From the NCBI RefSeq assembly GCF_024223415.1, contig NZ_CP100500.1: a stretch of DNA of 64,000 bases; one strand, written 5' to 3'. The translations under genes were made by a program, and so were the position numbers. Source of the DNA: Escherichia coli. Lineage in GTDB: Bacteria > Pseudomonadota > Gammaproteobacteria > Enterobacterales > Enterobacteriaceae. The notes beneath the pieces are model-generated. The model was not told the DNA's origin and ran no database searches. It saw only the letters and a list, made by a program, of their open reading frames with translations. This document shows positions 25,525 to 46,529 of this stretch, piece by piece. Position 1 is the stretch's first letter; every line of letters starts with the position of its first letter.

Positions 25525-26559
25525 ATGGAAATTCGCATAATGCTATTTATATTAATGATGATGGTTATGCCTGTGAGCTATGCGGCATGTTATAGTGAGT
25601 TATCTGTTCAGCACAATTTGGTTGTTCAGGGGGATTTTGCACTTACTCAAACACAAATGGCGACATATGAGCATAATTTTAATGATTCGTCATGCGTGAG
25701 TACAAATACTATCACCCCTATGAGCCCGTCGGATATTATTGTTGGACTTTATAACGATACCATTAAATTAAATTTACATTTTGAATGGACCAATAAAAAC
25801 AACATCACGTTGTCAAATAATCAGACCAGTTTCACCAGTGGTTATTCAGTTACGGTGACACCTGCGGCCAGTAATGCAAAAGTGAATGTTTCTGCGGGGG
25901 GCGGCGGTTCAGTGATGATTAATGGTGTTGCGACATTATCCAGTGCTTCATCATCGACACGCGGGAGTGCCGCAGTACAATTTCTACTGTGTTTATTAGG
26001 TGGCAAGTCATGGGATGCATGTGTAAATAGCTACAGAAATGCATTGGCACAAAATGCAGGTGTCTATTCCTTTAATCTGACATTGTCATACAACCCGATA
26101 ACCACAACCTGCAAACCGGACGATTTATTAATTACTTTAGACAGTATTCCCGTTTCACAATTACCAGCCACAGGTAACAAAGCAACAATAAATAGTAAAA
26201 AAGAGGATATTATTCTGCGTTGTAAAAATTTATTAGGTCAACAAAATCAAACATCACGGAAAATGCAGGTGTATTTATCAAGTTCTGACTTGTTAACCAA
26301 CAGCAACACAATACTGAAAGGTGCGGAAGATAATGGCGTAGGATTTATTCTTGAAAGTAATGGTTCGCCAGTCACACTTTTAAATATCACTAACAGCAGT
26401 AAAGGATACACAAATTTAAAAGAAATTGCGGCAAAGTCAAAACTTACAGATACAACGGTTTCAATTCCGATAACAGCCAGTTACTACGTCTACGATACAA
26501 ATAAAATTAAATCTGGCGCACTGGAGGCAACCGCATTAATCAACGTGAAATACGACTAA
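25525..26559 (+). CDS. yehA: Fimbrial adhesin-like subunit YehA
   Basis: 344-aa secreted protein and last gene of the yehDCBA cluster. Confidence 0.8.
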   Translation: MEIRIMLFILMMMVMPVSYAACYSELSVQHNLVVQGDFALTQTQMATYEHNFNDSSCVSTNTITPMSPSDIIVGLYNDTIKLNLHFEWTNKNNITLSNNQTSFTSGYSVTVTPAASNAKVNVSAGGGGSVMINGVATLSSASSSTRGSAAVQFLLCLLGGKSWDACVNSYRNALAQNAGVYSFNLTLSYNPITTTCKPDDLLITLDSIPVSQLPATGNKATINSKKEDIILRCKNLLGQQNQTSRKMQVYLSSSDLLTNSNTILKGAEDNGVGFILESNGSPVTLLNITNSSKGYTNLKEIAAKSKLTDTTVSIPITASYYVYDTNKIKSGALEATALINVKYD

Positions 26560-26615
26560 TAACAAGCAAGACGAGCAAGTGGCTAATAATAAAAAATAAC
26601 AAGGTGTCTGCATTT

Positions 26616-26642
26616 CCCCCTCATGATGAGGGGGCTTTTTTT
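26616..26642 (+). terminator. Terminator after yehA
   Basis: ccccctca-tga-tgaggggg stem followed by CTTTTTTT. Confidence 0.75.
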
Positions 26643-26979
26643 AGCGATGATAAAAAATCTCACCGTCGTAGGCTTTAATGATTTTACCGTCGGTGTCGCT
26701 GATCAACACGTACGCGCCACCCATATAGGTCCAGTGCGTCCCGGCATCAGGCGCGGGCAGGTTACGTAACTGCCACTGCTTAATGTTGTACTCATCGGTG
26801 CGGTACATCTCTGGGACGGTATCACCTGGTTTGAAATGCTTAAAGTCAGCAATGAAACTACTTAACTCATACTTAGAAATTCCCGAGGTATTGGTCGAAC
26901 CCGCGGTGGCTGGTGCGGCCCAGGCGGCACTGGTAACCAGCAAAAGCACACCCAGCAACATCTTATTTTTAATGGTCAT
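26641..26979 (-). CDS. rcnB: Periplasmic Ni/Co homeostasis protein RcnB (YohN)
   Basis: The internal start MTIKNKMLLGVLLLVTSAAWA gives the 112-aa K-12-like protein. The 172-aa ORF-track form is an over-extension. Confidence 0.85.
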   Translation of the reverse strand: MTIKNKMLLGVLLLVTSAAWAAPATAGSTNTSGISKYELSSFIADFKHFKPGDTVPEMYRTDEYNIKQWQLRNLPAPDAGTHWTYMGGAYVLISDTDGKIIKAYDGEIFYHR

Positions 26980-27197
26980 AAACTCTCCACTTTGGGGATC
27001 TGTAATATCAGTCGCATATCTTTCCTGCCATACAATATAACTGACAAGCGATATTTTGTTAGTGATCCCATGATTTCGTAAAAAGTGTAAATGAAAGGAT
27101 GCCCTAAAAGCATCCTTAGCGAGCAGAGAGTCAGCGGAAATAGCTGATTTAAGAATCATCCTGGGCTGAAGATAACATGCAAGCCTAAAGGATTGAG

Positions 27198-28022
27198 TTA
27201 TCGCATTATGCCCATGAAGCCATGTACGCCCATATACACACCGACTAAGCCAATCAACAGACTGGAAAAATAGGGGGCGCGTTTAGCGAGAGTGTTAAAT
27301 CCGCTCCAGCGTTTTGCGACCTGCTGAACGCTGATTGCTGCGCCAACGCCTACGGTGACAAGCGTTAACGCCAGGCCAATGCTGAAACTGACGACCAGTG
27401 TTGCGCCCAGTGTCAGGGCTTTCAACTGAATGCAAATCAACAGCACGGTAATTGCTGCCGGACAGGGGATAAGACCACCTGTTAAGCCAAATAACAAAAT
27501 TTGCCAGTTGGTGACCTCTCTACCATCAAAGCGTCGTTTAATATCATTGGCATGGGCTCGTGCATGGGCATCCTGATACTCGCCATGTTCGTGATGGTGA
27601 TGATGTCCATGGTCGTGGTGATCTTCGTGATCGTGGTGATGATGTTCATGATCATACTCGTGCATATTCTCCAGCCAGTTGCGTTCGCCGCGCCAGGTAC
27701 GCCAGAACATCCAGAACGCGGTGCCAATAATGATCACTGCGGAAATCAGCTGGAGCCACGGTTCTGCTGATTGAGCAGTAAAGCGCTTGCTGATCACCAT
27801 CCCGCCAAAGGCAATTAACCAGACCACTGCGGTATGCGAAATAGTTGCTGCCAGTCCGAGCATCACCGCCTGTTTAATGGTGCCTTTGATGGCGATGATA
27901 AACGCCGCCATCATCGTTTTTGAGTGCCCTGGTTCCAGGCCATGAAGCGCACCAAGTAAGATGGCGCTGGGGATGAAGAACCAGGCGTTTCCTTGCTGAA
28001 GAAGAGTTGTAAATTCGGTCAT
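27198..28022 (-). CDS. rcnA: Nickel/cobalt efflux pump RcnA
   Basis: 274-aa membrane protein with a His-rich loop (HEYDHEHHHHDHEDHHDHGHHHHHEHG). Confidence 0.92.
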   Translation of the reverse strand: MTEFTTLLQQGNAWFFIPSAILLGALHGLEPGHSKTMMAAFIIAIKGTIKQAVMLGLAATISHTAVVWLIAFGGMVISKRFTAQSAEPWLQLISAVIIIGTAFWMFWRTWRGERNWLENMHEYDHEHHHHDHEDHHDHGHHHHHEHGEYQDAHARAHANDIKRRFDGREVTNWQILLFGLTGGLIPCPAAITVLLICIQLKALTLGATLVVSFSIGLALTLVTVGVGAAISVQQVAKRWSGFNTLAKRAPYFSSLLIGLVGVYMGVHGFMGIMR

Positions 28023-28059
28023 GATAATAATTCTTAGTATTAATTCGGCAATCTGATTC

Positions 28060-28095
28060 TACTCCCCCCCCAGTACCTGATACTACCCCCCAGTA
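28060..28095. promoter_or_regulatory. RcnR operator pair in the rcnA-rcnR divergent region
   Basis: tactccccccccagta (28060-28075) and tactaccccccagta (28081-28095) match the known TACT-G6-N-AGTA RcnR motif on the opposite strand. Confidence 0.7.
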
Positions 28096-28143
28096 GATTA
28101 ATAGTGCTATGATTTTTCATATTCTTGTTAACCAGGTGTTGCC

Positions 28144-28416
28144 ATGTCTCATACAATCCGTGATAAACAGAAACTGAAAGCGCGTGCCAGTAAGATTCAG
28201 GGCCAGGTCGTGGCGCTCAAGAAAATGCTCGACGAGCCGCACGAATGCGCTGCAGTTTTACAACAGATTGCTGCTATCCGTGGCGCGGTAAACGGTCTGA
28301 TGCGGGAAGTGATTAAAGGTCATCTGACGGAACACATCGTTCACCAGGGGGATGAGCTAAAACGTGAAGAAGATCTGGATGTCGTTCTGAAGGTGCTGGA
28401 TTCATATATCAAATAA
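28144..28416 (+). CDS. rcnR: Ni/Co-responsive repressor RcnR (CsoR/RcnR family)
   Basis: 90-aa protein [21 protein letters not shown], in the K-12 position. Confidence 0.92.
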
Positions 28417-28510
28417 TTTATTAACGCGATTGTAAAACTGCCGTTTTTCCTCGTTTACAACGCGTGCGCTGGACATTACCATCCTCCTCTGCGATTTATC
28501 ATCGCAACCA

Positions 28511-28557
28511 AACGACTCGGGGTGCCCTTCTGCGTGAAGGCTGAGAAATACCCGTAT
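28511..28557 (+). promoter_or_regulatory. 5' half of the thiM TPP (THI-box) riboswitch aptamer, cut off by the island
   Basis: aacgactcggggtgcccttctgcgtgaaggctgagaaatacccgtat equals the 5' part of the crystallised E. coli thiM aptamer. Similarity ends abruptly at 28557. Confidence 0.88.
28544..28557 (+). repeat. attL core (direct repeat copy 1)
   Basis: agaaatacccgtat is identical to 39954-39967. Confidence 0.8.
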
Positions 28558-28642
28558 TTTCTCATTTAGTGTTTTTTGTGGTTCGGGGTTGTTCGTGGTT
28601 GTTTGTGTATGTGTTTGATATATATTGAATTATTGTGTTTTC

Positions 28643-28718
28643 TTGTTTGTTGTTGTTCGTCGTTGTTCGTAGAGCTTCAACAAAATGTGTGGTCAGTTGT
28701 GTGGTCAGTTTTTTGAGG
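28643..28718 (+). repeat. Left-arm copy of a ~75-bp repeat shared by both island arms (candidate Int arm-type sites)
   Basis: 28653-28712 is 60/60 identical to 39831-39890. It contains tandem GTGTGGTCAGTT x2 and TTGTTCGT x2, and a further GTTGTTCGT copy lies near 28594. Confidence 0.8.
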
Positions 28719-28745
28719 CTGGAGGACTGAAAAGAGGATCTGATA

Positions 28746-29969
28746 GTGGGAAAAGCACTAAACAAACTGAGCGATTCGACGTTAAAAAAATTGGCGTCTG
28801 TCCAAGCAGAAAAAGAGCGTTTTTACTCCGACGGGGGCGGGCTGGAGATTAAACACTCAAAGGGCGGCAAATTAACCTGGTATTTCCGGTACCGAACGGG
28901 AGGCCGTGAGGTTGCCGCAGAGCGGTTAAAGCTGGGGGCTTACCCTGAATTGTCGCTGAAAGCTGCAAGGGAAAAACGCGCACAGTGCCGGGCATGGCTG
29001 GCTGAGGGTAAAAACCCCCGTTATGAGTTGTGCGCCACAGTACAGGAAGCGCTAAAACCCGTTACGGTGAAGGAGGCGATTAACTACTGGCTGGATGAAT
29101 ATGCGAAGGATAACCGCAAAGACTACATAAAGCTGGTGCAACGTATGGATAAGCACATCATTTGCCATATAGGGGCAATTCCCCTTGATAAGTGTGATAC
29201 AAGGCAGTGGATCGCATGTTTTGACCGTGTACGAAAAAAAGCACCAGTAGCAGCAGGGCACGTCATGCAAACCTGCAAACAGGCGCTAAAGTTCTGCCGC
29301 AGGAGACGCTACGCGTTCAGTAATGCCCTGGACGATTTGATCGTCAGCGATGTGGGTAAGAGAGCAGAAATTCGCGAGAGGGTGCACAGCAACAGCGAAT
29401 TAAAGGAAATTTTACGCGCTATTGATGGTGATGTGTTCGCGCCTTACTACAGCGCGTTAATGCGCTTGCTGATTGTGTTCGGGTGCAGAACGGCAGAGGT
29501 CAGACTTTCAGAGATCAAAGAATGGGATCTGAAAGAAATGTTGTGGACAGTGCCAAAAGAGCATAGCAAAACGAAGGTAACGATATTCAGGCCAATCCCC
29601 GATGGCATTTTGCCGTTCATTCAGAAGCTGGTGGAGCAGAACCGGCATACAGGGTTATTACTCGGAGAACTGAAAAAAGATACCACGGTAGCGCAATATG
29701 GGCGAAATGCGCATAAGCGGCTTAACCAGGAACACTGGACGCTGCATGACTTTCGCCACACGTTTACAACGATGCTGAACGATTTAGGTGTCGATCCGCA
29801 TATCGTGGAGCACATCACAGCGCATCAGATGCCCGGTCAGCAAAAAACCTATAACCATTCACGCTATTTACAGGCGAAGCGAGACGCTCTGAATCTGTGG
29901 GTTGAGCGCCTCGATGTGCTGGCTGGAAATCATGAAAATATTGTCATATTAAGGGCTGAAAATGAATAA
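28746..29969 (+). CDS. int: Tyrosine recombinase, P4-type integrase
   Basis: GTG start with a GAGGA RBS 7 nt upstream. The N-terminus resembles an arm-binding domain (GGGLEIKHSKGGKLTWYFRYR). The C-terminus has HDFRHTF...HQ...Y catalytic motifs. Confidence 0.9.
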   Translation: MGKALNKLSDSTLKKLASVQAEKERFYSDGGGLEIKHSKGGKLTWYFRYRTGGREVAAERLKLGAYPELSLKAAREKRAQCRAWLAEGKNPRYELCATVQEALKPVTVKEAINYWLDEYAKDNRKDYIKLVQRMDKHIICHIGAIPLDKCDTRQWIACFDRVRKKAPVAAGHVMQTCKQALKFCRRRRYAFSNALDDLIVSDVGKRAEIRERVHSNSELKEILRAIDGDVFAPYYSALMRLLIVFGCRTAEVRLSEIKEWDLKEMLWTVPKEHSKTKVTIFRPIPDGILPFIQKLVEQNRHTGLLLGELKKDTTVAQYGRNAHKRLNQEHWTLHDFRHTFTTMLNDLGVDPHIVEHITAHQMPGQQKTYNHSRYLQAKRDALNLWVERLDVLAGNHENIVILRAENE

Positions 29970-30747
29970 TCTGGGCCGTGTATATCATACGCTGCCAATG
30001 GCAGCTAAAAAAATGGGATGTACTGTAGAGGATATTCTACATTTTGGTGCAACTAACCGACTTGAAATATGTGCGTATATTGATGATATTGAACAGAGAA
30101 AAGATTATTGCACTTTTAATGTGTTTTTTGATAATGAAGATAGCGAGAATAGTTTTTCTAAAACTATAAATAAATATAATTCCATATTTACTGACATGTA
30201 TGAAATATCATTGTTTAATTATAATGATGAGTTTTGTGTTGATGATGAGCGTATGGTTATTGAAGGTTTGTATGCTAATCATATGAAAGGCTTTTTTGCA
30301 ATACCATCTGAATTTCTTGTCGAAGTTGAATTGTCAAGTGCCTGTGAAATCATAAATCTATCGCCTCGTTATTTATATACACCGAAAGGTTATGGTGATT
30401 ATATTCGGTTGGATAGTATAGAAGGTCTTTCTATTCCAGAAAACAGGCTCGTGATATTCGATAGTGAGATATCGGGTTTTAATTATCAAAAGAAACCTAA
30501 ATATGCCGGAGGTGAAAGAGAATCACCTAAAACCAGAGCTAAAAAAGCCGAGATAATACCTGCTCTCATAAAACTGATCCCTGAGATGCAAGATGTGGAT
30601 TTGGAGGATACACCCGTATCCAAAATTGCAGAAATGATAGAGGTTATTGCTGCACAAAGAGGGGTTGAGTTACCTAGCACTCACAGGCAGACATGGCAGA
30701 AATATTTAGGGCGTGATGCTGGTGACGTTCCAAAACGTCAAAAGTGA
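29962..30747 (+). CDS. Hypothetical 261-aa protein, strongly AT-rich cargo-like gene, with possible N- and C-terminal HTH-like segments
   Basis: The ATG overlaps the int stop (ATGAATAA). I recognise no family. Composition is visibly more AT-rich than its neighbours. Confidence 0.6.
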   Translation: MNNLGRVYHTLPMAAKKMGCTVEDILHFGATNRLEICAYIDDIEQRKDYCTFNVFFDNEDSENSFSKTINKYNSIFTDMYEISLFNYNDEFCVDDERMVIEGLYANHMKGFFAIPSEFLVEVELSSACEIINLSPRYLYTPKGYGDYIRLDSIEGLSIPENRLVIFDSEISGFNYQKKPKYAGGERESPKTRAKKAEIIPALIKLIPEMQDVDLEDTPVSKIAEMIEVIAAQRGVELPSTHRQTWQKYLGRDAGDVPKRQK

Positions 30748-30774
30748 TATCACGTACAGATAGTGTGATATCAC
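30744..30774. promoter_or_regulatory. Pair of perfect 10-bp palindromes GTGATATCAC upstream of alpA (candidate operators)
   Basis: Copies at 30744-30753 and 30765-30774, offset by 21 bp (two helical turns). Confidence 0.6.
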
Positions 30775-30803
30775 ACAAACGGCATTTTACCACCGCCTAG
30801 AAT

Positions 30804-30837
30804 CGTCCTCGTTCGGCAACGTTCGAGGACGTTTTTT
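30804..30837 (+). terminator. Hairpin plus T-run directly abutting the alpA start; its 3' arm contains the alpA Shine-Dalgarno
   Basis: cgtcctcg (30804-30811) pairs with cgaggacg (30824-30831) and is followed by TTTTTT, then the ATG at 30838. Confidence 0.6.
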
Positions 30838-31062
30838 ATGAATCAAAATACACAATTTCAATCACTATCAGATCGCGTAATCCGTGAGGATGAATGCCGT
30901 AAGTTAACAGGAGTGTGCCGCACTACACGCTACGAACTGGAGAAAAAAGGGAGCTTTCCGTCTCGCCGTAATCTTGGTGGGCGTTCTGTAGGTTGGCTGC
31001 TGTCCGAGGTTATGGAATGGGTTAAAAGCCGGGATCGCATTAATTCAGGCAAGGCAGCGTAA
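30838..31062 (+). CDS. alpA: AlpA-family (prophage CP4-57 regulatory / excisionase-like) DNA-binding protein
   Basis: 74 aa with the motif RVIREDECRKLTGVCRTTRYELEKKGSFPSRRNLGGRSVGWLLSEVMEWV, typical of the AlpA/Vis family. Confidence 0.85.
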   Translation: MNQNTQFQSLSDRVIREDECRKLTGVCRTTRYELEKKGSFPSRRNLGGRSVGWLLSEVMEWVKSRDRINSGKAA

Positions 31063-36050: not shown

Positions 36051-36257
36051 ATGGCAGAAGAGAAAAAAGGCGGGGTGACGGTCTACATAAGCCCCGACAT
36101 CGTGGAGGCGCTCAAGGAACGCCACCAGCAGAATGTAAAAGCAGGCATTGCGGCAGGACTTGATCCGCTGGCGATGGTTGAGCCGTCAACAGGCTGGCAG
36201 GTGCGTACCTATTTACGTGCGGCGCTGGGTATCAATCAGGTTCACGGAGGTGAATAA
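36051..36257 (+). CDS. Hypothetical 68-aa protein, first gene of the capsid module
   Basis: AGAGGA RBS. Its stop overlaps the capsid gene start (TAATG). Confidence 0.55.
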   Translation: MAEEKKGGVTVYISPDIVEALKERHQQNVKAGIAAGLDPLAMVEPSTGWQVRTYLRAALGINQVHGGE

Positions 36258-37312
36258 TGACAGGCAAAGCAACGGCACTTACAACTAACCAGCTTTTCGC
36301 GTACCTGAATCGCGGGGATATTTCGGAATTAAAATTCAGTCCGCTGTTTACCACGCTGTTTTTCCCGAACGTGGCGACCTTCAACACCCAAAACATCATG
36401 CTGGACACCCTGGACATTGAAGAGGTTACGATGTCAGCGTTCTGTTCGCCTATGGTGGGTAGTCAGGTCCAGCGCGATAAAGGGTACGAAACCAGCACAA
36501 TCAAACCTGGCTACATGAAGCCAAAGCACGAAATCGATCCAACAAAGACCATCATGCGCATGGCTGGAGAAGATCCGGCACAGCTTAACGACCCAACCTA
36601 TCGCCGTATGCGCCTGATTACTGGCAACATGCGCCGCCAGGTAAACGCCATTAAAGCGCGTGTTGAATGGCTGGCGGTGAATGCGGTAACGACCGGAAAA
36701 AACATCATTGAGGGCGAAGGCATAGAACGCTATGAAATCGACTGGAAAATACCGGAAAACTGCATCATACAGCAGGCCAGTGGTAAAAAATGGTCCCAGC
36801 AGGATAAAGACATGCACGACCCAATCTATGACATCGAGCTTTATGCTGATCAGGCAGGTTGCCCCGCCAACGTCATGATTATGGGCGGTGAGGTATGGCG
36901 CACATTACGCAGCTTTAAAAAATTCCGTGAACTGTACGATCTTTCCCGTGGATCAGAATCCGCCGCCGAGCTGGCCTGTAAAAACCTGGGCGAAGTGGTG
37001 AGCTTTAAAGGCTATCTTGGTGATCTGGCCCTTATCGTCTATTCCGGCAAATACACTGACAGCGACGGCACCGAAAAATATTTCCTTGAGCCTGATTTGC
37101 TGGTCCTGGGTAACACCAATAATAAAGGGCTGGTGGCATATGGTGCGATTATGGATCAGGAAGCGGTAAGAACGGGCGCAACGCAAAACATGTACTACCC
37201 GAAAAACTGGATTGAGGACGGCGATCCGGCGATTGAGTACGTGCAGACGCACAGCGCACCGCAGCCGGTACCGGCAGATATTCGCAAATTTGTTACCGTC
37301 AAAATTGCTTAA
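36257..37312 (+). CDS. Major capsid protein, lambda gpE family
   Basis: Collinear similarity to lambda gpE as recalled: PGYMKPKHEIDP vs PGYVKPKHEVNP, DPTYRRMRL vs DPAYRRRRI, and YPKNWIEDGDPAIEYVQTHSAP vs YPKNWVTTGDPAREFTMIQSAP. Length is 351 aa against 341 aa for gpE. Confidence 0.88.
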   Translation: MTGKATALTTNQLFAYLNRGDISELKFSPLFTTLFFPNVATFNTQNIMLDTLDIEEVTMSAFCSPMVGSQVQRDKGYETSTIKPGYMKPKHEIDPTKTIMRMAGEDPAQLNDPTYRRMRLITGNMRRQVNAIKARVEWLAVNAVTTGKNIIEGEGIERYEIDWKIPENCIIQQASGKKWSQQDKDMHDPIYDIELYADQAGCPANVMIMGGEVWRTLRSFKKFRELYDLSRGSESAAELACKNLGEVVSFKGYLGDLALIVYSGKYTDSDGTEKYFLEPDLLVLGNTNNKGLVAYGAIMDQEAVRTGATQNMYYPKNWIEDGDPAIEYVQTHSAPQPVPADIRKFVTVKIA

Positions 37313-37323: not shown

Positions 37324-37659
37324 ATGGACGCTCCATATATTGAGTTATTTGCAGGCAGCCAGCAGGTATCCACGACGCTGGTACATTTTGCCGCTGATGC
37401 TGGCGTTATTCAGGAATTTACCCCGCTGATGCTGGCAGACAATGGCGAGTTTAAGGCGTGGGATGGTCAGGAATCTGGCAAAGCTGTTTATCTGACTTCG
37501 CACCCCGTGGACACGTCAAAGCAGAAATCAGCACAGTGTTACAAAACGGGGATATTCAATATTGCCGCCGTTAACTGGCCTGACAGCGTCGACACCGATG
37601 CGAAAAAATGCGCCGCCTTTGCGGGTTCCGGCGTATCCGTTCAGCCGCTGGCCCGATAA
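37324..37659 (+). CDS. Head decoration protein, lambda gpD-like
   Basis: 111 aa. FTPLMLADNGEFKAWDG vs lambda MTPLMLDTSSRKLVAWDG, and YKTGIFNIAAVNWP...KKCAAFAGSGVSV vs YKSGTFRYEDVLWP...KKRTAFAGTAISI. Confidence 0.8.
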   Translation: MDAPYIELFAGSQQVSTTLVHFAADAGVIQEFTPLMLADNGEFKAWDGQESGKAVYLTSHPVDTSKQKSAQCYKTGIFNIAAVNWPDSVDTDAKKCAAFAGSGVSVQPLAR

Positions 37660-37671: not shown

Positions 37672-38085
37672 ATGGCAACGAATGAAAGTATCATGACGCT
37701 ACCGCTGGCGAGTAAATTTAAAGCCGAAGCGCGGGCAATGGCTGACAGAGGTTTATCAACCTACGAGGCCATACACCGACTAAACAAACTGGAAGAACAG
37801 GACAAGCCGCGCGCTGATGCGATTATGGCGCTTCATGAATCTGACGACTACCAGCCGCTGTTACGTGCAATGGCTAACGTGCCTTGTATCGATGTTGGTA
37901 CGGCTAAAAGCATCCTTAGCATGACCATAGAGCAGGAACGCCCGAAGGTTGCACCAGAGCTTACTTCAGCCTTTGAAAACTTTATGGACATGCACAGCCC
38001 GAAAGCCGTATCAGCTGGCATGGCATACGATGGCAGAACCCCGTGCGATGACGGCGACATCGACCGCATACTGAAAACCATCTGA
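37672..38085 (+). CDS. Hypothetical 137-aa protein in the capsid module (function unknown; a scaffold or size-determination role is only a guess)
   Basis: ORF with a GGGGGA RBS, last gene before the terminator and cos site. Confidence 0.55.
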   Translation: MATNESIMTLPLASKFKAEARAMADRGLSTYEAIHRLNKLEEQDKPRADAIMALHESDDYQPLLRAMANVPCIDVGTAKSILSMTIEQERPKVAPELTSAFENFMDMHSPKAVSAGMAYDGRTPCDDGDIDRILKTI

Positions 38086-38090
38086 GACAA

Positions 38091-38114
38091 GGCCGGAGAA
38101 ATCCGGCTTTTTTT
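38091..38114 (+). terminator. Rho-independent terminator after the capsid module
   Basis: ggccgga-gaaa-tccggc followed by TTTTTTT. Confidence 0.75.
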
Positions 38115-38116
38115 GC

Positions 38117-38190
38117 GGGTCCTTTCCGGCATGTGGACCCGTTACGGGGCGTCGACCTCGCACGTTTTCGCTATTTATGACGTTTTTCCG
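38117..38190 (+). other. cos site 1 (plus orientation): lambda-like cosQ-cosN and the beginning of cosB
   Basis: gggtcctttccgg...cccgttacGGGCGTCGACCTcgcacgttttcgctatttatga matches recalled lambda gggtcctttccgg...ggttacgGGGCGGCGACCTcgcgggttttcgctatttatga. The 12-nt overhang equivalent is at 38147-38158 (11/12 identical to lambda). Confidence 0.8.
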
Positions 38191-38247
38191 TGAAGGTGAC
38201 ACCACCACCACTTGATTAATATTTAACCATGTAGTTAAGGTAACATT

Positions 38248-38682
38248 ATGATTGATAAAGCTTGTTTTGTAAGTCAGCAGGAAATAGCTGAACATTTCAA
38301 TGTTAACAGAACCACTATTCGCGCATGGACCAAACAGGGGATGCCGTATCTTAATGCGGATCGCGGAAAGTCTGGCGGTTATCACATCGGGCATACATTG
38401 TTTTGGTATTCAGGTAAAAGCCATCTTCAGACCATCGGATATCACGTAGAAACCAGTGCGCTGGAAAAAATTATGTTTGCCAGGCTGCTTTCATCTGAGC
38501 GTGACGAGTACTCCAGTGAAGAAACAGAACATCGATTTGATGAAGGTTTGCAGATTTACGGCTATTCACCGGAAGATGTGAGCAAGGCACGAAATAAAAT
38601 GGCTGGCTTTCTGGCTGGGTGGCGTCATGCCGTAAGCGTTCGCCGTGCCAGCATGGAGCAATCAGCCGATACAGAACAGTAA
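38248..38682 (+). CDS. Small terminase subunit, lambda Nu1-like (winged HTH N-terminus)
   Basis: VSQQEIAEHFNVNRTTIRAWTKQGMPYLNADRGKSGGYHIGHTLFWY parallels Nu1 KKQLADIFGASIRTIQNWQEQGMPVLRGGGKGNEVLYDSAAVIKWY. It lies just downstream of cos site 1, as Nu1 does in lambda. Confidence 0.75.
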   Translation: MIDKACFVSQQEIAEHFNVNRTTIRAWTKQGMPYLNADRGKSGGYHIGHTLFWYSGKSHLQTIGYHVETSALEKIMFARLLSSERDEYSSEETEHRFDEGLQIYGYSPEDVSKARNKMAGFLAGWRHAVSVRRASMEQSADTEQ

Positions 38683-38720
38683 AGCCGATAACTTGTTAAT
38701 CACGCGCAGCAATGCGTGTG

Positions 38721-38847
38721 ATTTTTGCACACTTCCGGTTAACGGGTACGATGTCCGGTTTGTTTGTACATTTTTTGCACATGTCCGGTTCGCAGAAAGC
38801 ATGTTTTTATATTTTTCAGATAGTTAACTTGCAGAGAAACCGGACAT
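38721..38847 (-). promoter_or_regulatory. cosB-like array of small-terminase binding-site candidates (ATGTCCGGTT repeats) belonging to cos site 2
   Basis: TTCCGGTT at 38733-38740. ATGTCCGGTT at 38751-38760 and 38781-38790. An inverted AACCGGACAT at 38838-38847. An AT-rich spacer at 38800-38830. Two copies carry the extended motif TTTTTGCACA. Confidence 0.6.
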
Positions 38848-38850
38848 GGA

Positions 38851-38930
38851 TCCCGAAAAATTTTCATAAATAGTGAAAACGCGCGGGTTCGACGCCCCGT
38901 AACGGGCCATAATTCCAGAAGGACCCGACG
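38851..38930 (-). other. cos site 2 (minus orientation): second lambda-like cosQ-cosN, convergent with cos site 1
   Basis: The minus strand reads gggtccttctgg...cccgttacGGGCGTCGAACCcgcgcgttttcactatttatgaaaattttt. The overhang equivalent is at 38886-38897 (9/12 to lambda). An 18-nt core (38889-38906) is identical to 38138-38155. Confidence 0.75.
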
Positions 38931-38960
38931 ACACCAGACTATCAGAGCGATGGGGGCACA

Positions 38961-39242: not shown

Positions 39243-39261
39243 TACGTACGGACATCGAGAT

Positions 39262-39506
39262 AACGCAAAATTGCGCTGGCTACATCCCTCACATCTGAGG
39301 ACTGATAACAAGCTGCCTGAAAGACAGTCACAAACTACGAAATTTTCGCAGTTTAATTAATGGTCAGCTTAATCGCTAACCCGCTGATATTTTCGGAAAC
39401 ATCAATTTGAGGAAGTCGGCGCGGTAACTCGCTGAACTTAAAGCAAAGCGCAAAATTGCGCTGATTACTGGTTGGAATTGTTCCAGAGTGCAAATTTGCA
39501 CTCTGG
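39262..39506. repeat. Set of related inverted repeats (GCGCAA-AA-TTGCGC type) plus a 24-bp perfect palindrome
   Basis: aacgcaaaattgcgct at 39262-39277, agcgcaaaattgcgct at 39447-39462, and ccagagtgcaaatttgcactctgg at 39483-39506. Confidence 0.7.
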
Positions 39507-39667
39507 CCTAACCCGTTGATTATTTCGAAAACCTGCAATGCAGGAAATCGGGGAAGTAAGCCTAAGCTATTGATTGTTTCGAAAACCACCATTGGGGGAT
39601 GTCGGGAAAGTAAGACTAACCCATTGATTCTTCCACAATCCTCAATGTGAGGAGGCCGGACATCGTG
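39376..39667. repeat. Four degenerate ~54-bp repeat units (three in exact tandem phase) in the right arm of the island
   Basis: Units start at 39376, 39508, 39562 and 39616. Consensus is CTAACCCnTTGATTnTTTCGAAAAC plus a short hairpin plus GTCGG..AGTAAG. Confidence 0.75.
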
Positions 39668-39820
39668 ACAGAGCGTGACAACCAGGTAACTAATCTCGCT
39701 GGTGGGCGTGATGTCGATATGGTGATCCCCATAACGGGTTATCCGTGATCATCCACCAGCTTCATGGCAGATAGCCGGAAAATGATAACGGTTAAGCAAA
39801 ACTGCCAGCAAATTTCCCTT

Positions 39821-39894
39821 TTGTTTGTTATTGTTCGTCGTTGTTCGTAGAGCTTCAACAAAATGTGTGGTCAGTTGTGTGGTCAGTTTTGAGG
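39821..39894 (+). repeat. Right-arm copy of the ~75-bp repeat shared by both island arms
   Basis: 39831-39890 is identical to 28653-28712. Confidence 0.8.
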
Positions 39895-39953
39895 TTTTTA
39901 ATTCTTATGTGCTGAAAAACTTATTAATTATCAACTGATAACAAAAATTAGTA

Positions 39954-39967
39954 AGAAATACCCGTAT
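39954..39967 (+). repeat. attR core (direct repeat copy 2)
   Basis: agaaatacccgtat is identical to 28544-28557. Confidence 0.8.
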
Positions 39968-40048
39968 CACCTGATCTGGATAATGCCAGCGTAGGGAAGT
40001 CACGGACCACCAGGTCATTGCTTCTTCACGTTATGGCAGGAGCAAACT
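39954..40048 (+). promoter_or_regulatory. 3' half of the thiM TPP riboswitch aptamer plus its expression platform
   Basis: agaaatacccgtatcacctgatctggataatgccagcgtagggaagtcacgg...ggcaggagcaaact continues the thiM aptamer exactly where 28557 stops and runs to the thiM ATG. Confidence 0.88.
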
Positions 40049-40837
40049 ATGCAAGTCGACCTGCTGGGTTCAGCGCAATCTGCGCACGCGTTACACCTTT
40101 TTCACCAACATTCCCCTCTTGTGCACTGCATGACCAATGATGTGGTGCAAACCTTTACCGCCAATACCTTGCTGGCGCTCGGTGCATCGCCAGCGATGGT
40201 TATCGAAACCGAAGAGGCCAGTCAGTTTGCGGCTATCGCCAGTGCCTTGTTGATTAACGTTGGCACACTGACGCAGCCACGCGCTCAGGCGATGCGTGCT
40301 GCCGTTGAGCAAGCAAAAAGCTCTCAAACACCCTGGACGCTTGATCCAGTAGCGGTGGGTGCGCTCGATTATCGCCGCCATTTTTGTCATGAACTTTTAT
40401 CTTTTAAACCGGCAGCGATACGTGGTAATGCTTCGGAAATCATGGCATTAGCTGGCATTGCTAATGGCGGACGGGGAGTGGATACCACTGACGCCGCAGC
40501 TAACGCGATACCCGCTGCACAAACACTGGCACGGGAAACTGGCGCAATCGTCGTGGTCACTGGCGAGATGGATTATGTTACCGATGGACATCGTATCATT
40601 GGTATTCACGGTGGTGATCCGTTAATGACCAAAGTGGTAGGAACTGGCTGTGCATTATCGGCGGTTGTCGCTGCCTGCTGTGCGTTACCAGGCGATACGC
40701 TGGAAAATGTCGCATCTGCCTGTCACTGGATGAAACAAGCCGGAGAACGCGCAGTCGCCAGAAGCGAGGGGCCAGGCAGTTTTGTTCCACATTTCCTTGA
40801 TGCGCTCTGGCAATTGACGCAGGAGGTGCAGGCATGA
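40049..40837 (+). CDS. thiM: Hydroxyethylthiazole kinase
   Basis: 262 aa, [32 protein letters not shown], in the K-12 position. Confidence 0.95.
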
Positions 40838-41634
40838 AACGAATTAACGCTCTGACGATTGCCGGTACTGATCCGAGTGGTGGTGCGGGGATTCAGGCCG
40901 ATCTTAAAACCTTCTCGGCACTTGGCGCTTATGGTTGCTCAGTTATTACTGCACTGGTGGCGCAAAATACCCGTGGCGTACAGTCGGTGTATCGCATTGA
41001 GCCTGATTTTGTCGCCGCCCAGCTCGATTCGGTGTTCAGCGATGTGCGAATCGATACCACTAAAATCGGTATGCTGGCGGAAACCGATATTGTTGAAGCG
41101 GTGGCAGAACGGTTGCAACGTTATCAGATCCAAAACGTGGTACTCGACACCGTTATGCTGGCAAAAAGCGGCGACCCGCTGCTTTCACCTTCGGCGGTTG
41201 CTACGCTGCGCAGTCGATTATTGCCACAGGTTTCATTAATAACGCCAAACTTGCCCGAAGCTGCCGCCTTGCTCGACGCGCCACACGCGCGCACCGAACA
41301 GGAAATGCTGGAACAAGGGCGATCGCTGTTGGCGATGGGCTGTGGCGCAGTGCTAATGAAAGGTGGTCATCTGGATGATGAGCAAAGCCCGGACTGGCTG
41401 TTTACCCGCGAGGGTGAACAACGGTTTACCGCACCGCGCATTATGACCAAAAACACCCACGGCACTGGTTGTACACTCTCTGCGGCGTTGGCTGCACTAC
41501 GCCCGCGCCATACAAACTGGGCTGACACCGTACAGGAGGCAAAAAGCTGGCTTTCATCGGCGTTAGCCCAGGCCGACACGCTGGAAGTTGGTCACGGTAT
41601 TGGTCCGGTTCACCACTTCCACGCCTGGTGGTGA
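40834..41634 (+). CDS. thiD: Hydroxymethylpyrimidine/phosphomethylpyrimidine kinase
   Basis: 266 aa, [29 protein letters not shown] overlap with thiM. Confidence 0.95.
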
Positions 41635-41698
41635 GCACCGTACTATAGCTGCTTTGGTTATTGTCAGCCTTTGGCACTGACATTCAGGGATGAAACCA

Positions 41699-42517
41699 AT
41701 GCAGCTAAGAATTACCAGTCGAAAAAAACTCACCTCTCTATTATGCGCTCTTGGGCTAATTTCCATCGTTGCAATTTATCCGCGTCAGACGGTGAATTTT
41801 TTCTATTCGACAGCAGTTCAGATTACAGACTACATCCACTTCTACGGTTATCGCCCGGTTAAATCTTTCGCTATTCGCATTCCTGCCAGTTACACCATTC
41901 ACGGAATAGATGTTTCGCGCTGGCAGGAGCGGATCGACTGGCAGCGGGTGGCAAAAATGCGCGACAACGGTATCCGCTTACAGTTTGCTTTTATTAAGGC
42001 GACGGAAGGCGAAAAGCTGGTGGACCCCTATTTTTCGCGTAACTGGCAACTAAGCCGCGAAAATGGCCTGCTGCGTGGGGCGTATCATTATTTCTCCCCG
42101 TCGGTATCCGCTTCAGTTCAGGCGAGATTATTTCTGCAAACGGTGGATTTCTCACAAGGCGATTTCCCTGCCGTGCTGGACGTAGAAGAACGGGGAAAAT
42201 TATCGGCAAAAGAATTACGCAAGCGGGTAAGTCAGTGGCTAAAAATGGTCGAAAAAAGTACGGGGAAAAAGCCGATTATTTACTCAGGAGCCGTTTTTTA
42301 TCACACCAATCTGGCGGGCTATTTCAATGAATATCCGTGGTGGGTGGCTCACTACTATCAACGTCGTCCGGACAATGACGGAATGGCCTGGCGCTTCTGG
42401 CAGCATTCCGACCGTGGACAGGTAGATGGCATCAATGGTCCGGTGGATTTTAATGTATTTAATGGCACGGTGGAGGAGTTGCAGGCATTCGTTGATGGGA
42501 TTAAAGAAACGCCTTAA
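41699..42517 (+). CDS. yegX: YegX, GH25 (lysozyme-like) family protein
   Basis: GIDVSRWQ...DWQRV and FAFIKATEG motifs are typical of GH25 muramidases. The start is ambiguous (41690 or 41699). Confidence 0.8.
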   Translation: MQLRITSRKKLTSLLCALGLISIVAIYPRQTVNFFYSTAVQITDYIHFYGYRPVKSFAIRIPASYTIHGIDVSRWQERIDWQRVAKMRDNGIRLQFAFIKATEGEKLVDPYFSRNWQLSRENGLLRGAYHYFSPSVSASVQARLFLQTVDFSQGDFPAVLDVEERGKLSAKELRKRVSQWLKMVEKSTGKKPIIYSGAVFYHTNLAGYFNEYPWWVAHYYQRRPDNDGMAWRFWQHSDRGQVDGINGPVDFNVFNGTVEELQAFVDGIKETP

Positions 42518-42568
42518 ATAAGAAGCAGTGATATACTCCCACCAGACTCCCCGGCAGGAAAAAGACAA

Positions 42569-43315
42569 ATGGAACAAGCGCATACCCAGCTGATTGCCCA
42601 ACTGAACGAGCGTATTTTAGCGGCGGATAACACGCCGCTTTATATTAAGTTTGCCGAAACGGTAAAAAATGCCGTGCGCAGCGGGGTGCTGGAGCATGGC
42701 AATATTTTGCCCGGTGAGCGTGATTTAAGTCAGTTAACCGGCGTTTCGCGCATTACGGTGCGCAAGGCGATGCAGGCGCTGGAAGAAGAGGGTGTGGTGA
42801 CGCGTTCGCGCGGTTACGGCACGCAGATCAACAACATCTTCGAATACTCGTTGAAAGAAGCGCGAGGTTTTTCTCAGCAGGTGGTATTGCGCGGGAAAAA
42901 GCCCGATACGCTATGGGTTAACAAGCGTGTCGTGAAATGTCCCGAAGAAGTCGCGCAGCAGCTGGCGGTCGAAGCAGGAAGTGATGTCTTTTTGCTTAAG
43001 CGTATTCGCTATGTCGATGAAGAAGCGGTATCGATTGAGGAATCGTGGGTTCCGGCGCATTTAATTCATGATGTTGATGCCATCGGGATTTCACTTTATG
43101 ACTATTTCCGCAGCCAGCACATTTACCCACAACGTACGCGTTCCCGCGTTAGCGCCCGGATGCCAGATGCCGAGTTTCAGTCACATATTCAGTTAGATAG
43201 CAAAATACCGGTGCTGGTGATCAAGCAAGTGGCGCTTGACCAACAGCAACGGCCTATTGAATACAGCATTAGCCACTGTCGCAGCGATCTATACGTTTTT
43301 GTGTGCGAGGAGTAG
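42569..43315 (+). CDS. yegW: GntR/HutC-family transcriptional regulator YegW
   Basis: 248 aa with an N-terminal GntR wHTH (LPGERDLSQLTGVSRITVRKAMQAL) and a UTRA-like C-terminus. Confidence 0.88.
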   Translation: MEQAHTQLIAQLNERILAADNTPLYIKFAETVKNAVRSGVLEHGNILPGERDLSQLTGVSRITVRKAMQALEEEGVVTRSRGYGTQINNIFEYSLKEARGFSQQVVLRGKKPDTLWVNKRVVKCPEEVAQQLAVEAGSDVFLLKRIRYVDEEAVSIEESWVPAHLIHDVDAIGISLYDYFRSQHIYPQRTRSRVSARMPDAEFQSHIQLDSKIPVLVIKQVALDQQQRPIEYSISHCRSDLYVFVCEE

Positions 43316-44254
43316 TTCCTCGCGCGTTGGCGCACAATCACCGCCCCGATGCCCGACAACCCACGACGCCACTGCATTGCCCAGTAATACGGCATCCGCC
43401 AGTGGCAGACCAGAGGCCAGCCCGGCAAGTACGCCACCGGCATGACTGTCGCCCGCCCCAATGGTGTCGACAACTTGCGTTGGAAATGCCGGAATGCAGC
43501 CAGAAGCGTCGTTGCTGAAATACCATGCGCCTTCTTTATCGAGACGAACGATCAACGGCGCGGCAAATTTCTCCTGCCATTGTTTGCCAAGTGTTGTTAT
43601 CTCTGCGGATAAAGCAAAACGTTCGGCGGCAATCTCAGCCTCTTGACGATTGAGCGACACTAAAGGTCGACAGGCCATGATCCGCGCCAGTAATGCATCC
43701 GGGATATCGCCAATACGTGGGCCAAAATCGATAAACGGCGTCACGTCTTGCAGCTTTTCCAGCCATTCCACTAATAATTCGCCGCAGGGCGAGGCCAGTT
43801 GATAACCGGAAAAATAGAGCAGGCTGCCAGGCGCAACGGTTAATCGCGCCAGACACTGGCGATTCCACTGATTTTCCACACCGCTGAATGACATAAAAGT
43901 GCGTTCGCCATCCGGCTCAACCAGCGCCAGACACCAGCCGTTATCACCTTCGGCGTTATCGATCAGGCTGATTAAGCCCTCTTTTGCCATCCGGTTGCGA
44001 ATAATCTCCGCCCACACGCCCTGACCGAGCGGCAAGGCATTACCCGCTTCGATGCCGAGGCGCTTTAACGCCACGGCAATATTCAGTGCGCAGCCGCCAA
44101 CGTTAACGCTCTGCTGTTTCAGTTCGATATCGCACCCACGCCAGGGGAGGGCATAAGCGTCGGCGATCACGTCAATGACCGCCGCGCCGACGACCATCAC
44201 CGACTGACGCGTGGTTAATTCAGGCAGCAGCGTGTGTAATCGAGCGCCGCTCAT
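43289..44254 (-). CDS. yegV: PfkB-family sugar/nucleoside kinase YegV
   Basis: 321 aa with the C-terminal motif DTIGAGDSHAGG. Convergent overlap with yegW. Confidence 0.88.
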   Translation of the reverse strand: MSGARLHTLLPELTTRQSVMVVGAAVIDVIADAYALPWRGCDIELKQQSVNVGGCALNIAVALKRLGIEAGNALPLGQGVWAEIIRNRMAKEGLISLIDNAEGDNGWCLALVEPDGERTFMSFSGVENQWNRQCLARLTVAPGSLLYFSGYQLASPCGELLVEWLEKLQDVTPFIDFGPRIGDIPDALLARIMACRPLVSLNRQEAEIAAERFALSAEITTLGKQWQEKFAAPLIVRLDKEGAWYFSNDASGCIPAFPTQVVDTIGAGDSHAGGVLAGLASGLPLADAVLLGNAVASWVVGHRGGDCAPTREELLLAHKNV

Positions 44255-45255
44255 ACCGCCTCCCGTTGTTGACGATATTTCGCCAGCGCTGTGGCATAGC
44301 GGTTGAAATCAAGCTGATTTACCGCATCCAGCTCCGCCTTTAACGCAGGATCGATAGCGTTAATGCCATGCAACGCGCCGCAGATTGCCGTCGCCATAGC
44401 ACCGATGGTGTCTGTATCGCCGCCAAGGTTAGCGCACAGTACGGCGCAACGGTTCGGGTCGGTTTGTGCCAGTTCAACCAGCGCAATGGCGCACGGAACG
44501 GACTCAATAGTGCTGGTACCTGCGCCAACGACCTGGTAAAGCTGTTCGCTGGCGGATTCGGTGCCGTCGGCATTGCGCACAATTTTCAGCGCAATCTCCA
44601 ACCGCGCTGCCAGTGAGGCGCTGAACGTAGTGATGCGTTTTTGCTGTGCATGTCGCGCAATTGAAGGCAGGGAATCAACAATCGCTGACCAGCTTTCTCC
44701 GTCAATGGCACGAGAAATCGCCCATGCGATGACTACCGCGCCTGCAACCGCCAGATCGGATTTATGGGTCGGGCTGGACGCCAGCGCTACATCATCAATA
44801 AAGGAATCAACATCACGCGCCGGAAGCAAACAACCTAATGGCGAGACGCGCATCGCTGCGCCGTTGGTCACGCCGTTGTTTTCCAGTTCAGCAACGGGTT
44901 TACCGTCGCGAATGGCGTTAAGCGCAATCTTCGAGGTCGGACCTAGTACGTTTTTGTTAAAGGCGTCGAAACGCAGCGCCCAGTCGAGAATATTACGCCC
45001 AATCAGATCCGGATCGATCTTGCCTTCACGTTCCAGTAACGCATCCGCCAGACACAGCGCCATCGAGGTATCGTCGGTGAATTCGGCGCGGTTAAAATAA
45101 CAGGCCGCGTTATTCTCCTTTGGTCCAGGAAGAAAACGGTCAATCCAGCCAAAGTGTGCTTTAACGCGGCTGCGTGGCCAAAGCTCGGAGGGCATCCCCA
45201 TCGCATCCCCTAACGCCTGCCCATAAAGAGCACCGAGAATACGTTCTGTTTTCAT
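44251..45255 (-). CDS. yegU: ADP-ribosylglycohydrolase-family protein YegU
   Basis: 334 aa with GALYGQALGDAMGMPSE and GGDTDTIGAM motifs. Confidence 0.88.
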   Translation of the reverse strand: MKTERILGALYGQALGDAMGMPSELWPRSRVKAHFGWIDRFLPGPKENNAACYFNRAEFTDDTSMALCLADALLEREGKIDPDLIGRNILDWALRFDAFNKNVLGPTSKIALNAIRDGKPVAELENNGVTNGAAMRVSPLGCLLPARDVDSFIDDVALASSPTHKSDLAVAGAVVIAWAISRAIDGESWSAIVDSLPSIARHAQQKRITTFSASLAARLEIALKIVRNADGTESASEQLYQVVGAGTSTIESVPCAIALVELAQTDPNRCAVLCANLGGDTDTIGAMATAICGALHGINAIDPALKAELDAVNQLDFNRYATALAKYRQQREAV

Positions 45256-46529
45256 TTAACTTCCCCTTGTGTCAACGCAATATCGCGATCATCGACCTTG
45301 ATAGCCGTAATTTCGTTGTCGGATTCGCGGAAAAAAATCATGAACAGCACGGCGATAATGGCAATCATCACCGCGCCGAAAGTCCACATCCCGGACCAGT
45401 TGAAAGTCAGTCCGTTTACCGGTTCCTGATAAGCGAACATCTTTTCCATCATCACACCGCCAAGACGATAGCCGAGCAAACTGCCGAAGCCCTGGCAGCA
45501 GAGCGTGATCAGCCCCTGCGCAGCGGTACGCATATGCACGGGGGCTTTTTTATCGACATAGATGTAAGCGGTAACGTAGTAAAAATCGTAACTTACGCCG
45601 TGAAGCAAAATACCGAGGAACAGTAACGCGTAGGTGAAATATTCATCCGCACTACCGTAAATAAAGAAGCCATAGCGGATCGCAGCGGTGACCAGACCAA
45701 GCAATAATACCTTTTTGATACCAAAGCGTTTAGTGAAAAACGGCAATGCCAGCATAAAGAAGATTTCAGAGAACTGGCCGAGCGTCATCCAGCCGGTGGC
45801 GTTTTTCATGCCAACTTCGGTCAGATAACCGTTGGCAAAGATGTAATAGAACGCTAGTGGCATCGCAAACAGGAATGAACAGAAGAAAAAGACGAGGAAG
45901 TTTTTATCGCGCAGCAGGATCAGCGCATCCAGGCCGAGCATGACTTTAATATCCATTTTGCCGGTGCTTTTTGGTGGCGTGTCGGGCAGGAAAAACGCAA
46001 ACACACCGAGCAGAGCAGAACTTCCGGCGGTAATCAGCAGCGGGATGTTAGTCGGTGAGATATCGGCATACCCCAGTATTTGCGGCAAGAAACCACATGC
46101 CAGACCGGAGGCAATCCAGCCGATAGTGCCCATCACACGAATGCGCGGGAAATCACGCTCAACATCCGGCACGTTGGCAAAAGCGATGCTGTTAGTCAGC
46201 GCAATGGTCGGCATATAGGTTAGCGAGTAGGCCAGCAGTAACGGGAAGAACCCGGCAAAAGTGGTCTGTTGCGCAGCGAAATACATCAGCAGCGCGCCTG
46301 CGAACATCAATACCGCCAGCACTTTCTGCGCCGAGAAAAAGCGGTCAGTGATGGAGCCAACCAGAATTGGCGACAGGATCGCCGCAATGGCGGTACAGGC
46401 ATACGACCAGCCAATTTCTCCGGCACTAAAACCGCTTTTACTTAACCACAACCACAATGGCACAAACCACGCGCCCCAGATAAACCATTCAACAAACATC
46501 ATGAACGACAGCTTTGCTGTTGTTTTCAT
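45252..46529 (-). CDS. yegT: Nucleoside:H+ symporter-family transporter YegT
   Basis: 425-aa polytopic membrane protein. ATGA-type coupling to yegU. Confidence 0.88.
   Translation of the reverse strand: MKTTAKLSFMMFVEWFIWGAWFVPLWLWLSKSGFSAGEIGWSYACTAIAAILSPILVGSITDRFFSAQKVLAVLMFAGALLMYFAAQQTTFAGFFPLLLAYSLTYMPTIALTNSIAFANVPDVERDFPRIRVMGTIGWIASGLACGFLPQILGYADISPTNIPLLITAGSSALLGVFAFFLPDTPPKSTGKMDIKVMLGLDALILLRDKNFLVFFFCSFLFAMPLAFYYIFANGYLTEVGMKNATGWMTLGQFSEIFFMLALPFFTKRFGIKKVLLLGLVTAAIRYGFFIYGSADEYFTYALLFLGILLHGVSYDFYYVTAYIYVDKKAPVHMRTAAQGLITLCCQGFGSLLGYRLGGVMMEKMFAYQEPVNGLTFNWSGMWTFGAVMIAIIAVLFMIFFRESDNEITAIKVDDRDIALTQGEVK

Follow-up and report, generated by a model that had tools for sequence, protein, structure and literature searches.

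The 64,000-nt stretch of Escherichia coli DNA analyzed here (contig NZ_CP100500.1; its full length is called the window) carries an island with two cos packaging sites, and we describe an array of short repeats in cosB of the second site, cos2. Positions 38050-38960 were 95.8% identical to E. coli CFT073 (1387461-1388372), and the window had the same gene order as CFT073, namely, integrase, primase, SSB, capsid-like, decoration-like, and 137-aa, 144-aa, and 93-aa open reading frames (ORFs). With the capsid-like and decoration-like genes, orf137, cos1, rppA, an inverted cos2, and orf93 all in place, the island belongs to the family of EcCICFT073, the prototype Gram-negative phage-inducible chromosomal island (PICI). 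The arms of cos1 and cos2 flanked rppA as a 70-nt inverted repeat. The rppA gene (38248-38682, plus strand; 144 aa) encodes the protein that an earlier note on this DNA, made from the sequence alone, had called TerS-like (TerS, terminase small subunit); it matched RppC (PDB 6hlk) with an E value of 1.6e-33 and differed from the published RppA at one of the first 50 residues. The cos1 site (38117-38332, plus strand) matched the published cos1 and comprised cosQ (38117-38123), cosN (38147-38158), and an Rpp-dependent cosB extending into rppA, in which the proposed R3-PICI site, ACCACCACC (PMC9026076), lay at 38201-38209 (plus strand, bp 55-63).

The core of the array, ATGTCCGGTT, was found exactly at 38751-38760 (+), 38781-38790 (+), and 38838-38847 (−), with no further exact copy in the window. 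Dinucleotide shuffles of the window gave a mean of 0.09 exact copies, and three or more were reached in 0 of 100 shuffles. With one mismatch allowed, five copies were found against 3.9 expected, which is not unusual; the signal is therefore the exact, clustered triplet. A degenerate fourth copy, TTCCGGTT (AACCGGAA on the cos2 strand), at 38733-38740 (−; cos2 bp 158-165) matched 8 of 10 positions. It was polymorphic among relatives (CFT073 has TTTCGGTT, or AACCGAAA on the cos2 strand), lay outside the segment common to island and phages, and fell within a 19-nt direct repeat that shares 89% identity with the sequence flanking the 38781 site. It is best taken as a degenerate extra copy, and its function is doubtful. 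The spacer between the inverted site and the others (38791-38837) was 68% A+T, compared with 50% for the window. The earlier note had listed four related sites and an A+T-rich spacer at these positions and had read them as a cosB-type array of TerS sites beside a second cos, with lambda-like geometry; the coordinates and the spacer were confirmed (the fourth site being the inexact one), and the reading as an array of predicted TerS sites agreed with the register described below.

Each cos was anchored at its first cohesive-end base, with cos2 bp 1 at window position 38897 (minus strand) and cos1 bp 1 at 38147; on this scale, the array sites fell at cos2 bp 51-60, 108-117, 138-147, and 158-165. 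All of the following cos2 elements are on the minus strand unless noted. The cosQ of cos2 (GGGTCCT, 38920-38926) aligned with cosQ of lambda, of the phage PhiR12_1, and of CFT073 cos2, the sequence of which was printed in PMC6739421 (Fig. S1A) and contains the ATGTCCGGTT and AACCGGACAT repeats. The 12-nt cohesive-end sequence of cosN, GGGCGTCGAACC (38886-38897), was placed by anchored comparison with lambda, 21, PhiR12_1, and CFT073, and it differed from that of lambda, GGGCGGCGACCT, at bp 6, 10, and 12. The T for G at position 6 (GGGCGTCGACCT) was present in both cosN sequences of the window (38147-38158 and 38886-38897) and also in the prophage at locus L014 and the islands L085 and L106. 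Two further differences in cos2, at positions 10 and 12 (GGGCGTCGAACC), mean that cos1 and cos2 would, as predicted from their sequences, give different cohesive ends.

On the cosB side, an I2-like match to the IHF consensus, TATGAAAATTTTT (38856-38868; cos2 bp 30-42; 7 of 9 consensus positions), agreed in sequence and position with I2 as annotated in phage 21 (bp 30-44) and with the lambda match. The R3 equivalent, a predicted TerS site, was the block CCATGTCCGGTTTCTCT (38833-38849; cos2 bp 49-65; core ATGTCCGGTT at 38838-38847), in the register of R3 of lambda and 21 (bp 50-65). A candidate IHF site equivalent to I1, TTTCAGATAGTTA (38814-38826, plus strand; cos2 bp 72-84; 7 of 9 positions), lay inside the A+T-rich spacer. 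It shares the strand of the lambda and 21 matches (bp 74-86) and is offset from them by no more than 2 bp; I1 of 21 is annotated at bp 72-86. Because a match by itself is weak, agreement in position with lambda and 21 was the sole IHF evidence used. The R2 equivalent, inverted relative to R3, read GAACCGGACATG on the cos2 strand (38780-38791; cos2 bp 107-118), with its core AACCGGACAT at bp 108-117; R2 of 21 is annotated at bp 107-122. A third R copy, AACCGGACAT on the cos2 strand (38751-38760; cos2 bp 138-147), was the last element common to phages and had the orientation of R2, whereas R1 of lambda and 21 has that of R3. The array (38733-38849) was followed in the island not by a cognate terS but by the 3′ end of rppA, which lies on the other strand.

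Compared with lambda cosB, the array likewise had a lambda-like cosQ and cosN on its left, a proximal site at about bp 50 to 65, an inverted second site about 57 bp away, an A+T-rich spacer with an IHF-like match at the I1 position, and a conserved I2 sequence. The positions expected of a lambda-type complex cosB, with cosQ on the opposite side of cosN, a site at R3, and an inverted R2, were thus all occupied. It differed from lambda in its core (ATGTCCGGTT versus CGTTTCC(G/T)TTCT), in the inversion of the third copy, and in having no terS following in the island. The proposal that the sites mirror the lambda layout was accordingly borne out for R3 and R2 in position and inversion, agreed in position for the candidate I1, and failed for R1, the third copy being oriented as R2; the repeat was, as had been noted, unlike the lambda R sites. 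In phage 21 (M81255), cosB is annotated with I2 at 30-44, R3 at 50-65, I1 at 72-86, R2 at 107-122, and R1 at 150-165, and the first two cos2 sites were in the R3/R2 register. The R boxes of 21, all written here in the R3 orientation, are AATCGTGTCGGTACTT, TTTCATGTCGGACCTT, and TTTCATGTCGGGCCTT. Their core, CATGTCGG, is visibly related to the cos2 core, CATGTCCGG, which suggests common descent of the two site families; the cos2 core is longer by a single C, and the flanks are unlike.

A sensitive search of sequenced phages returned five PhiR12 phages, with 86% identity over ~178 bp from cosQ to the third R site (PhiR12_1). In PhiR12_1, the module is directly upstream of the annotated Nu1 (the lambda-type name for TerS) and gpA, and the homology between island and phage stopped right after the third R site. 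Over cos2 bp 1-147, the window had 5 mismatches to the L014 prophage and 15 to CFT073, and CFT073 had 4 to PhiR12_1; that island alleles are nearer to particular phage alleles than to each other suggests ongoing exchange with phages. The IMG/VR database held 269 relatives of PhiR12 Nu1, of which the best 80 were analyzed. These 80 loci encoded Nu1 proteins that were 100% identical, preceded by 40 distinct upstream variants in which the R blocks were kept and the spacers varied. The R3 17-mer, which is exact at 38833-38849 (−) in the window, occurred at least 121 times in IMG/VR. It was followed at a fixed distance by a PhiR12-type Nu1 in 105 cases; the others were followed by a reverse-complement rppA (5), lay in islands without rpp (7), were a chance match (1), or had incomplete contexts (3).

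Conservation was profiled as mean column identity over 45 distinct phage and island variants. It was 0.999 for R3, 0.993 for R2, and 0.96 for the I1 region and fell to 0.78 and 0.83 in the two spacers; the R3 core was exact in 44 of the 45 variants, and CCATGTCCGGTTTCTCT had one variable column of 17. The cosB segment was found in 1,184 of 5,426 complete E. coli genomes, at 1,906 places, including many O157, O26, O145, and O121 strains. Of the 20 genomes that best matched the island region, 6 had extra matching places and 14 had none. On these comparisons, the module (cosQ-cosN-I2-R3-I1-R2-R, 38751-38926) is a copy of the packaging-initiation site of widespread lambdoid prophages (PhiR12-like, common in O157, O26, and O145). 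The description of the array as island specific therefore had to be given up, given its place upstream of a phage Nu1 (86% identity to PhiR12_1 and 5 mismatches in 147 bp to L014), the 105 of at least 121 IMG/VR occurrences, and its spread through E. coli genomes. A search of species-representative genomes for ATGTCCGGTT followed after 40 to 56 nt by AACCGGACAT gave 28 matches, none titled Enterobacteriaceae, where ~9 were estimated by chance; these were treated as chance inverted repeats, uninformative about spread beyond E. coli strains.

The protein paired with the array in phages, PhiR12 Nu1 (L002, 4228-4737), was 46% identical to lambda Nu1 over residues 73-164, and its N-terminal DNA-binding domain had no detectable similarity to that of lambda Nu1. 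The Pfam family Phage_Nu1 matched residues 49-150 alone. By its sequence, PhiR12 Nu1 is in effect a chimera of a lambda-like C-terminal half and a divergent N-terminal domain. The predicted recognition helices were DRQLRRLQKL for the PhiR12 class, IRTIQNWQEQ for lambda, PRTIERWQSQ for 21, and RTTIRAWTKQ for RppA; despite the likeness of the R cores, the helix of 21 TerS (PRTIERWQS) is unrelated to that of the PhiR12 class (DRQLRRLQK).

The content of cos2 was then compared among 20 RppA islands from IMG/VR. The cos1 cosB was constant (…GTGAAGGTGACACCACCACCAC…), and the cos2 slot held the PhiR12-type cassette at 11 loci and an unrelated N15/Monarch-type cassette at 9 (L098 to L106; for example, L099, 1640-1871, minus strand). 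In the latter cassette (type B), the R3 position was occupied by GAGGTTGTTGTTTAATTG, accompanied by ATACAACAACC in inverted orientation and by GTGGTTGTTGTAT as a third site; within its R3 is GAGGTTGTTGTT, which Feiss and colleagues reported as R3 of N15. When the type B cassette was compared with sequenced phages by BLAST, the cosN-I2 part alone matched; N15-like phages were instead linked to it by exact search with the R3 18-mer, which recurred in such phages (L235 and L241) before the TerS gene, the inverted rR2 already described for them lying within this gene. Sister islands without rpp (L085, 2925-3520, from E. coli strain 135, NZ_CP080260.1; and seven IMG/VR contigs, L113, L120, L128, L138, L152, L155, and L203) had a PhiR12-type cos site and an N15/Monarch-type one, separated by 535 bp and pointing toward each other. 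The left cos of L085 had a cos1-type cosQ side joined within cosN to a cos2-type cosB, and fragments of the 3′ end of rpp were present in both orientations, an arrangement that points to recombination between inverted cos repeats.

These data bear on which protein reads the array. The general idea of the earlier note, that a Nu1-like satellite protein redirects the helper terminase, is the published Rpp mechanism of this island family (PMC6739421), and that paper also reported that RppA residues differ from those of lambda Nu1 at DNA-reading positions. The further claim, that the 144-aa protein itself reads the repeats, would have RppA bind ATGTCCGGTT, by itself or paired with helper TerS in a heterodimer, and direct helper TerL to cos2. 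In its favor, RppA does have a Nu1-like winged helix-turn-helix, the array is immediately downstream of rppA, and the DNA-reading residues differ as just noted (PMC6739421). In the CFT073 island, however, which is 95.8% identical, RppA raised lambda- and phi80-mediated transfer of cos1 plasmids only, RppA with helper TerS stimulated the cos1 cosB alone, and chimeras with the cos2 cosB were not transferred with RppA (PMC6739421, Fig. 6A and B). The DNA-binding domain of RppA (residues 1-64) was identical in islands with either of the two unrelated cos2 cassettes, alongside the constant cos1 cosB, and the array was retained in the sister islands without rpp and in 105 phage contexts without rpp among the matches listed. 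The RppA recognition helix resembles those of lambda and 21, not that of the PhiR12 class. Nor does the array look like an Rpp-dependent site of the cos1 type: the ACCACCACC motif was found at cos1 only, cos2 bp 55-63 reading CCGGTTTCT, and the array did not covary with rpp. The published genetics on the orthologue and the comparative data together indicate that the array is not matched to RppA and is independent of Rpp, and binding of the repeats by RppA is very improbable.

Instead, cos2 probably mimics a phage cos, with the TerS of a PhiR12-type helper reading it directly, and complements the Rpp/cos1 route. The homology, the register, the conservation pattern, and the pairing of the array with one Nu1 class were observed here; from them we infer the binding of PhiR12-type TerS to ATGTCCGGTT, the binding of IHF, and the helper status of such phages. 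When a PhiR12-class helper grows in an island-bearing cell, a dimer of its TerS would dock on R3 (bp 51-60) and on its inverted partner, R2 (bp 108-117), with IHF helping to bend the A+T-rich spacer between the two. The docked TerS would position helper TerL on cosN of cos2, and island concatemers would be packaged leftward, with no need for Rpp. The Rpp/cos1 route, already published, serves those helpers (lambda, phi80, and 21-type) with a TerS open to capture by RppA. The island would so hold two packaging keys, retargeting by RppA and cos1 and direct mimicry by cos2.

Several points weigh against this mimicry. Deletion of cos2 leaves island transfer undiminished and in fact raises it with lambda and phi80 (PMC6092414); cos2 is therefore a cost with these helpers. 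The known inducing prophage of CFT073, phi4, has a 21-type cosB, and megablast detected no second copy of the region in CFT073. The three departures of cosN in cos2 from the lambda consensus could impair nicking. The IHF consensus match was no better than background, 7-of-9 matches occurring at 9.4 per kb in the window. Finally, in most phage relatives an oppositely oriented ATGACCGGTT overlaps the third R copy, and the island copy is without this R3-oriented ATGACCGGTT. The phage variants L014 and L018 are likewise without it; since L014 lacks it, a bona fide phage also has the three sites arranged as in the island.

Some of these points would suit a relic, in which cos2 was left when the island once recombined with a PhiR12-like prophage and has been kept as a recent or neutral trace with no present packaging role. 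The improved lambda and phi80 transfer upon cos2 deletion (PMC6092414) fits such a history, as do the absence of the cognate Nu1 and of the R1-oriented copy from the island, the three cosN substitutions in the window, and the crossovers within cosN visible in sister islands. Set against these, the R3 and R2 cores were exact in all island variants, even with spacers diverging by up to 22 mismatches per 147 bp between islands, and a minimal complete cos module was retained, with homology ending exactly past the last R site. In other islands the slot holds a second, equally complete phage-type cassette, and the islands without rpp have such cassettes only. The exact cores, the minimal module, the alternative cassette, and the rpp-less islands therefore argue for selection over a neutral relic. 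In addition, both cos sites support plasmid transduction when cloned, cos2 alone gives residual island transfer, and deletion of both sites abolishes transfer (PMC6092414). On balance a relic is unlikely, though not far-fetched.

A third possibility is a decoy, the array titrating PhiR12-type TerS or starting abortive packaging in the inverted direction and thereby inhibiting the helper. Satellites commonly interfere with helper packaging (PMC6739421), a replicating island at high copy number would present many cosB copies, and cos2 is inverted relative to cos1. Yet cos2 has an intact cosQ and cosN in an order suited to productive packaging, and interference and mobilization are compatible, so that inhibition is more likely to be a side effect than the main function; as the main function, it seems distinctly improbable. 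Extending the mimicry of a phage cos to the whole family, there is about an even chance that EcCICFT073-type islands keep a swappable second-cos slot, filled with the complete cosB of a helper class that RppA cannot capture, either PhiR12 (ATGTCCGGTT) or N15/Monarch (GGTTGTTGTT), and that some islands, with rpp dropped, rely on two facing mimic sites. The lambda-like packaging specificities documented in the literature searched are those of lambda, 21, and N15. If the slot reading is true, ATGTCCGGTT with the DRQLRRLQK-helix Nu1 would be a fourth, carried by roughly one in five complete E. coli genomes.

The cos2 of EcCICFT073 (Fillol-Salom 2018, 2019) is orthologous to the one described here (95.8% identity), follows rppA, and is inverted relative to cos1; the window allele differs in having another spacer between R2 and the third R copy (as in phage L014) and a variant cosN. 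In those papers (PMC6092414 and PMC6739421), cosB was called “completely divergent,” and no R sites were annotated; no phage cosB was identified in either cos site, and the question was asked why some PICIs have two cos sites (PMC6739421). The Rpp-dependent cos1 cosB (R3-PICI; Murialdo and Feiss 2022, PMC9026076) is a packaging-initiation signal of the same island with the same cosQ, cosN, and I2 sequences. It has no repeated R, a single proposed site (ACCACCACC), and a need for RppA, whereas the cos2 array is repeated, phage derived, and Rpp independent. Satellites carrying the cos of their helper are known: SaPIbov5 does so (PMC6092414), and the HE-PICI 11capE shares 258 bp with its helper 50icd (PMC10111431). 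Those satellites, too, are packaged by presenting the helper's own cos; here, unlike there, the mimicry would stand beside an Rpp site in one island, in a slot with alternative phage-specificity cassettes.

Literature searches with the 10-mers returned unrelated primer and vector papers alone, no paper annotating these repeats was found in the PICI cos2/cosB literature searched, and a lateral-transduction paper (PMC12829572) made no mention of cos sites. Three points appear to be new within the literature searched: the annotation of subsites in cos2, the placing of cos2 in an uncharacterized lambda-like specificity class, and the polymorphism of the slot for cassettes. The array reveals no new kind of mechanism. 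The Rpp papers left open the reason for two cos sites, and if cos2 is an exchangeable copy of a prophage cosB, that question becomes directly testable. If the mimicry is true, islands carrying virulence genes would have a wider helper range, including the lambdoid prophages abundant in O157, O26, and O145. An uncharacterized TerS/cosB specificity pair would also be added to the lambda, 21, and N15 set used for studying terminase DNA recognition.

A terminator scan gave matches over the array at 38743-38757 and 38856-38840, which are read as by-products of CCGG cores followed by T runs, and a terminator-like hairpin with a T run 3′ of rppA (38701-38727, plus strand), outside the cosB array. Small ORFs across the array (38712-38873 and 38645-38827) were rejected as genes; the spacers carry single-base indels, and the repeat blocks alone are conserved. 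In the PhiR12_1 record, a “hypothetical protein” coding sequence (L002, 4057-4179, minus strand) lies wholly over the homologous cosB repeats and is probably a spurious gene call, rejected because the spacers of its relatives carry indels and only the repeat blocks are kept.

Around the rppA start codon, a 17-nt inverted repeat (GTAGTTAAGGTAACATT/AATGTTAACAGAACCAC, 76% complementary; 38231-38247 and 38299-38315) falls inside the published cos1 cosB segment and could be a second Rpp-TerS contact or a regulatory site. Protein scans of species-representative genomes found no relatives of Rpp. In the divergent Rpp islands L107 to L109 (82 to 84% identity), the motif ACACCAC(C/A)ACCACTTGATTAAT was kept beside rpp (at about 1100-1230), and the sequence at the cosN position was quite different (L107, GGGCGGGAGCGG; L108, GGTACGTGTACG); the flanks available for these islands showed no second cos. 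These observations fit the R3-PICI proposal and, judged by sequence, suggest helpers with other cohesive ends.

The window region 24000-31000 covers yehB, yehA, rcnA, and a tyrosine recombinase, and the left end of the island is therefore somewhere inside it. The right flank (within about 39250-46500) was yegT-yegX-thiD. A search for tRNA genes across the whole window found none, and the island is inserted elsewhere than in CFT073 (roxA/phoQ) or in strain Ch1 (tRNA-Pro near yejM). EcCICFT073 was said to be without capsid morphogenesis genes (PMC6092414). Just upstream of cos1, the window encodes a lambda gpE-type major capsid protein (36257-37312; Pfam Phage_cap_E, E = 1e-50) and a gpD-type head decoration protein (37324-37659; HDPD, E = 1.7e-17).

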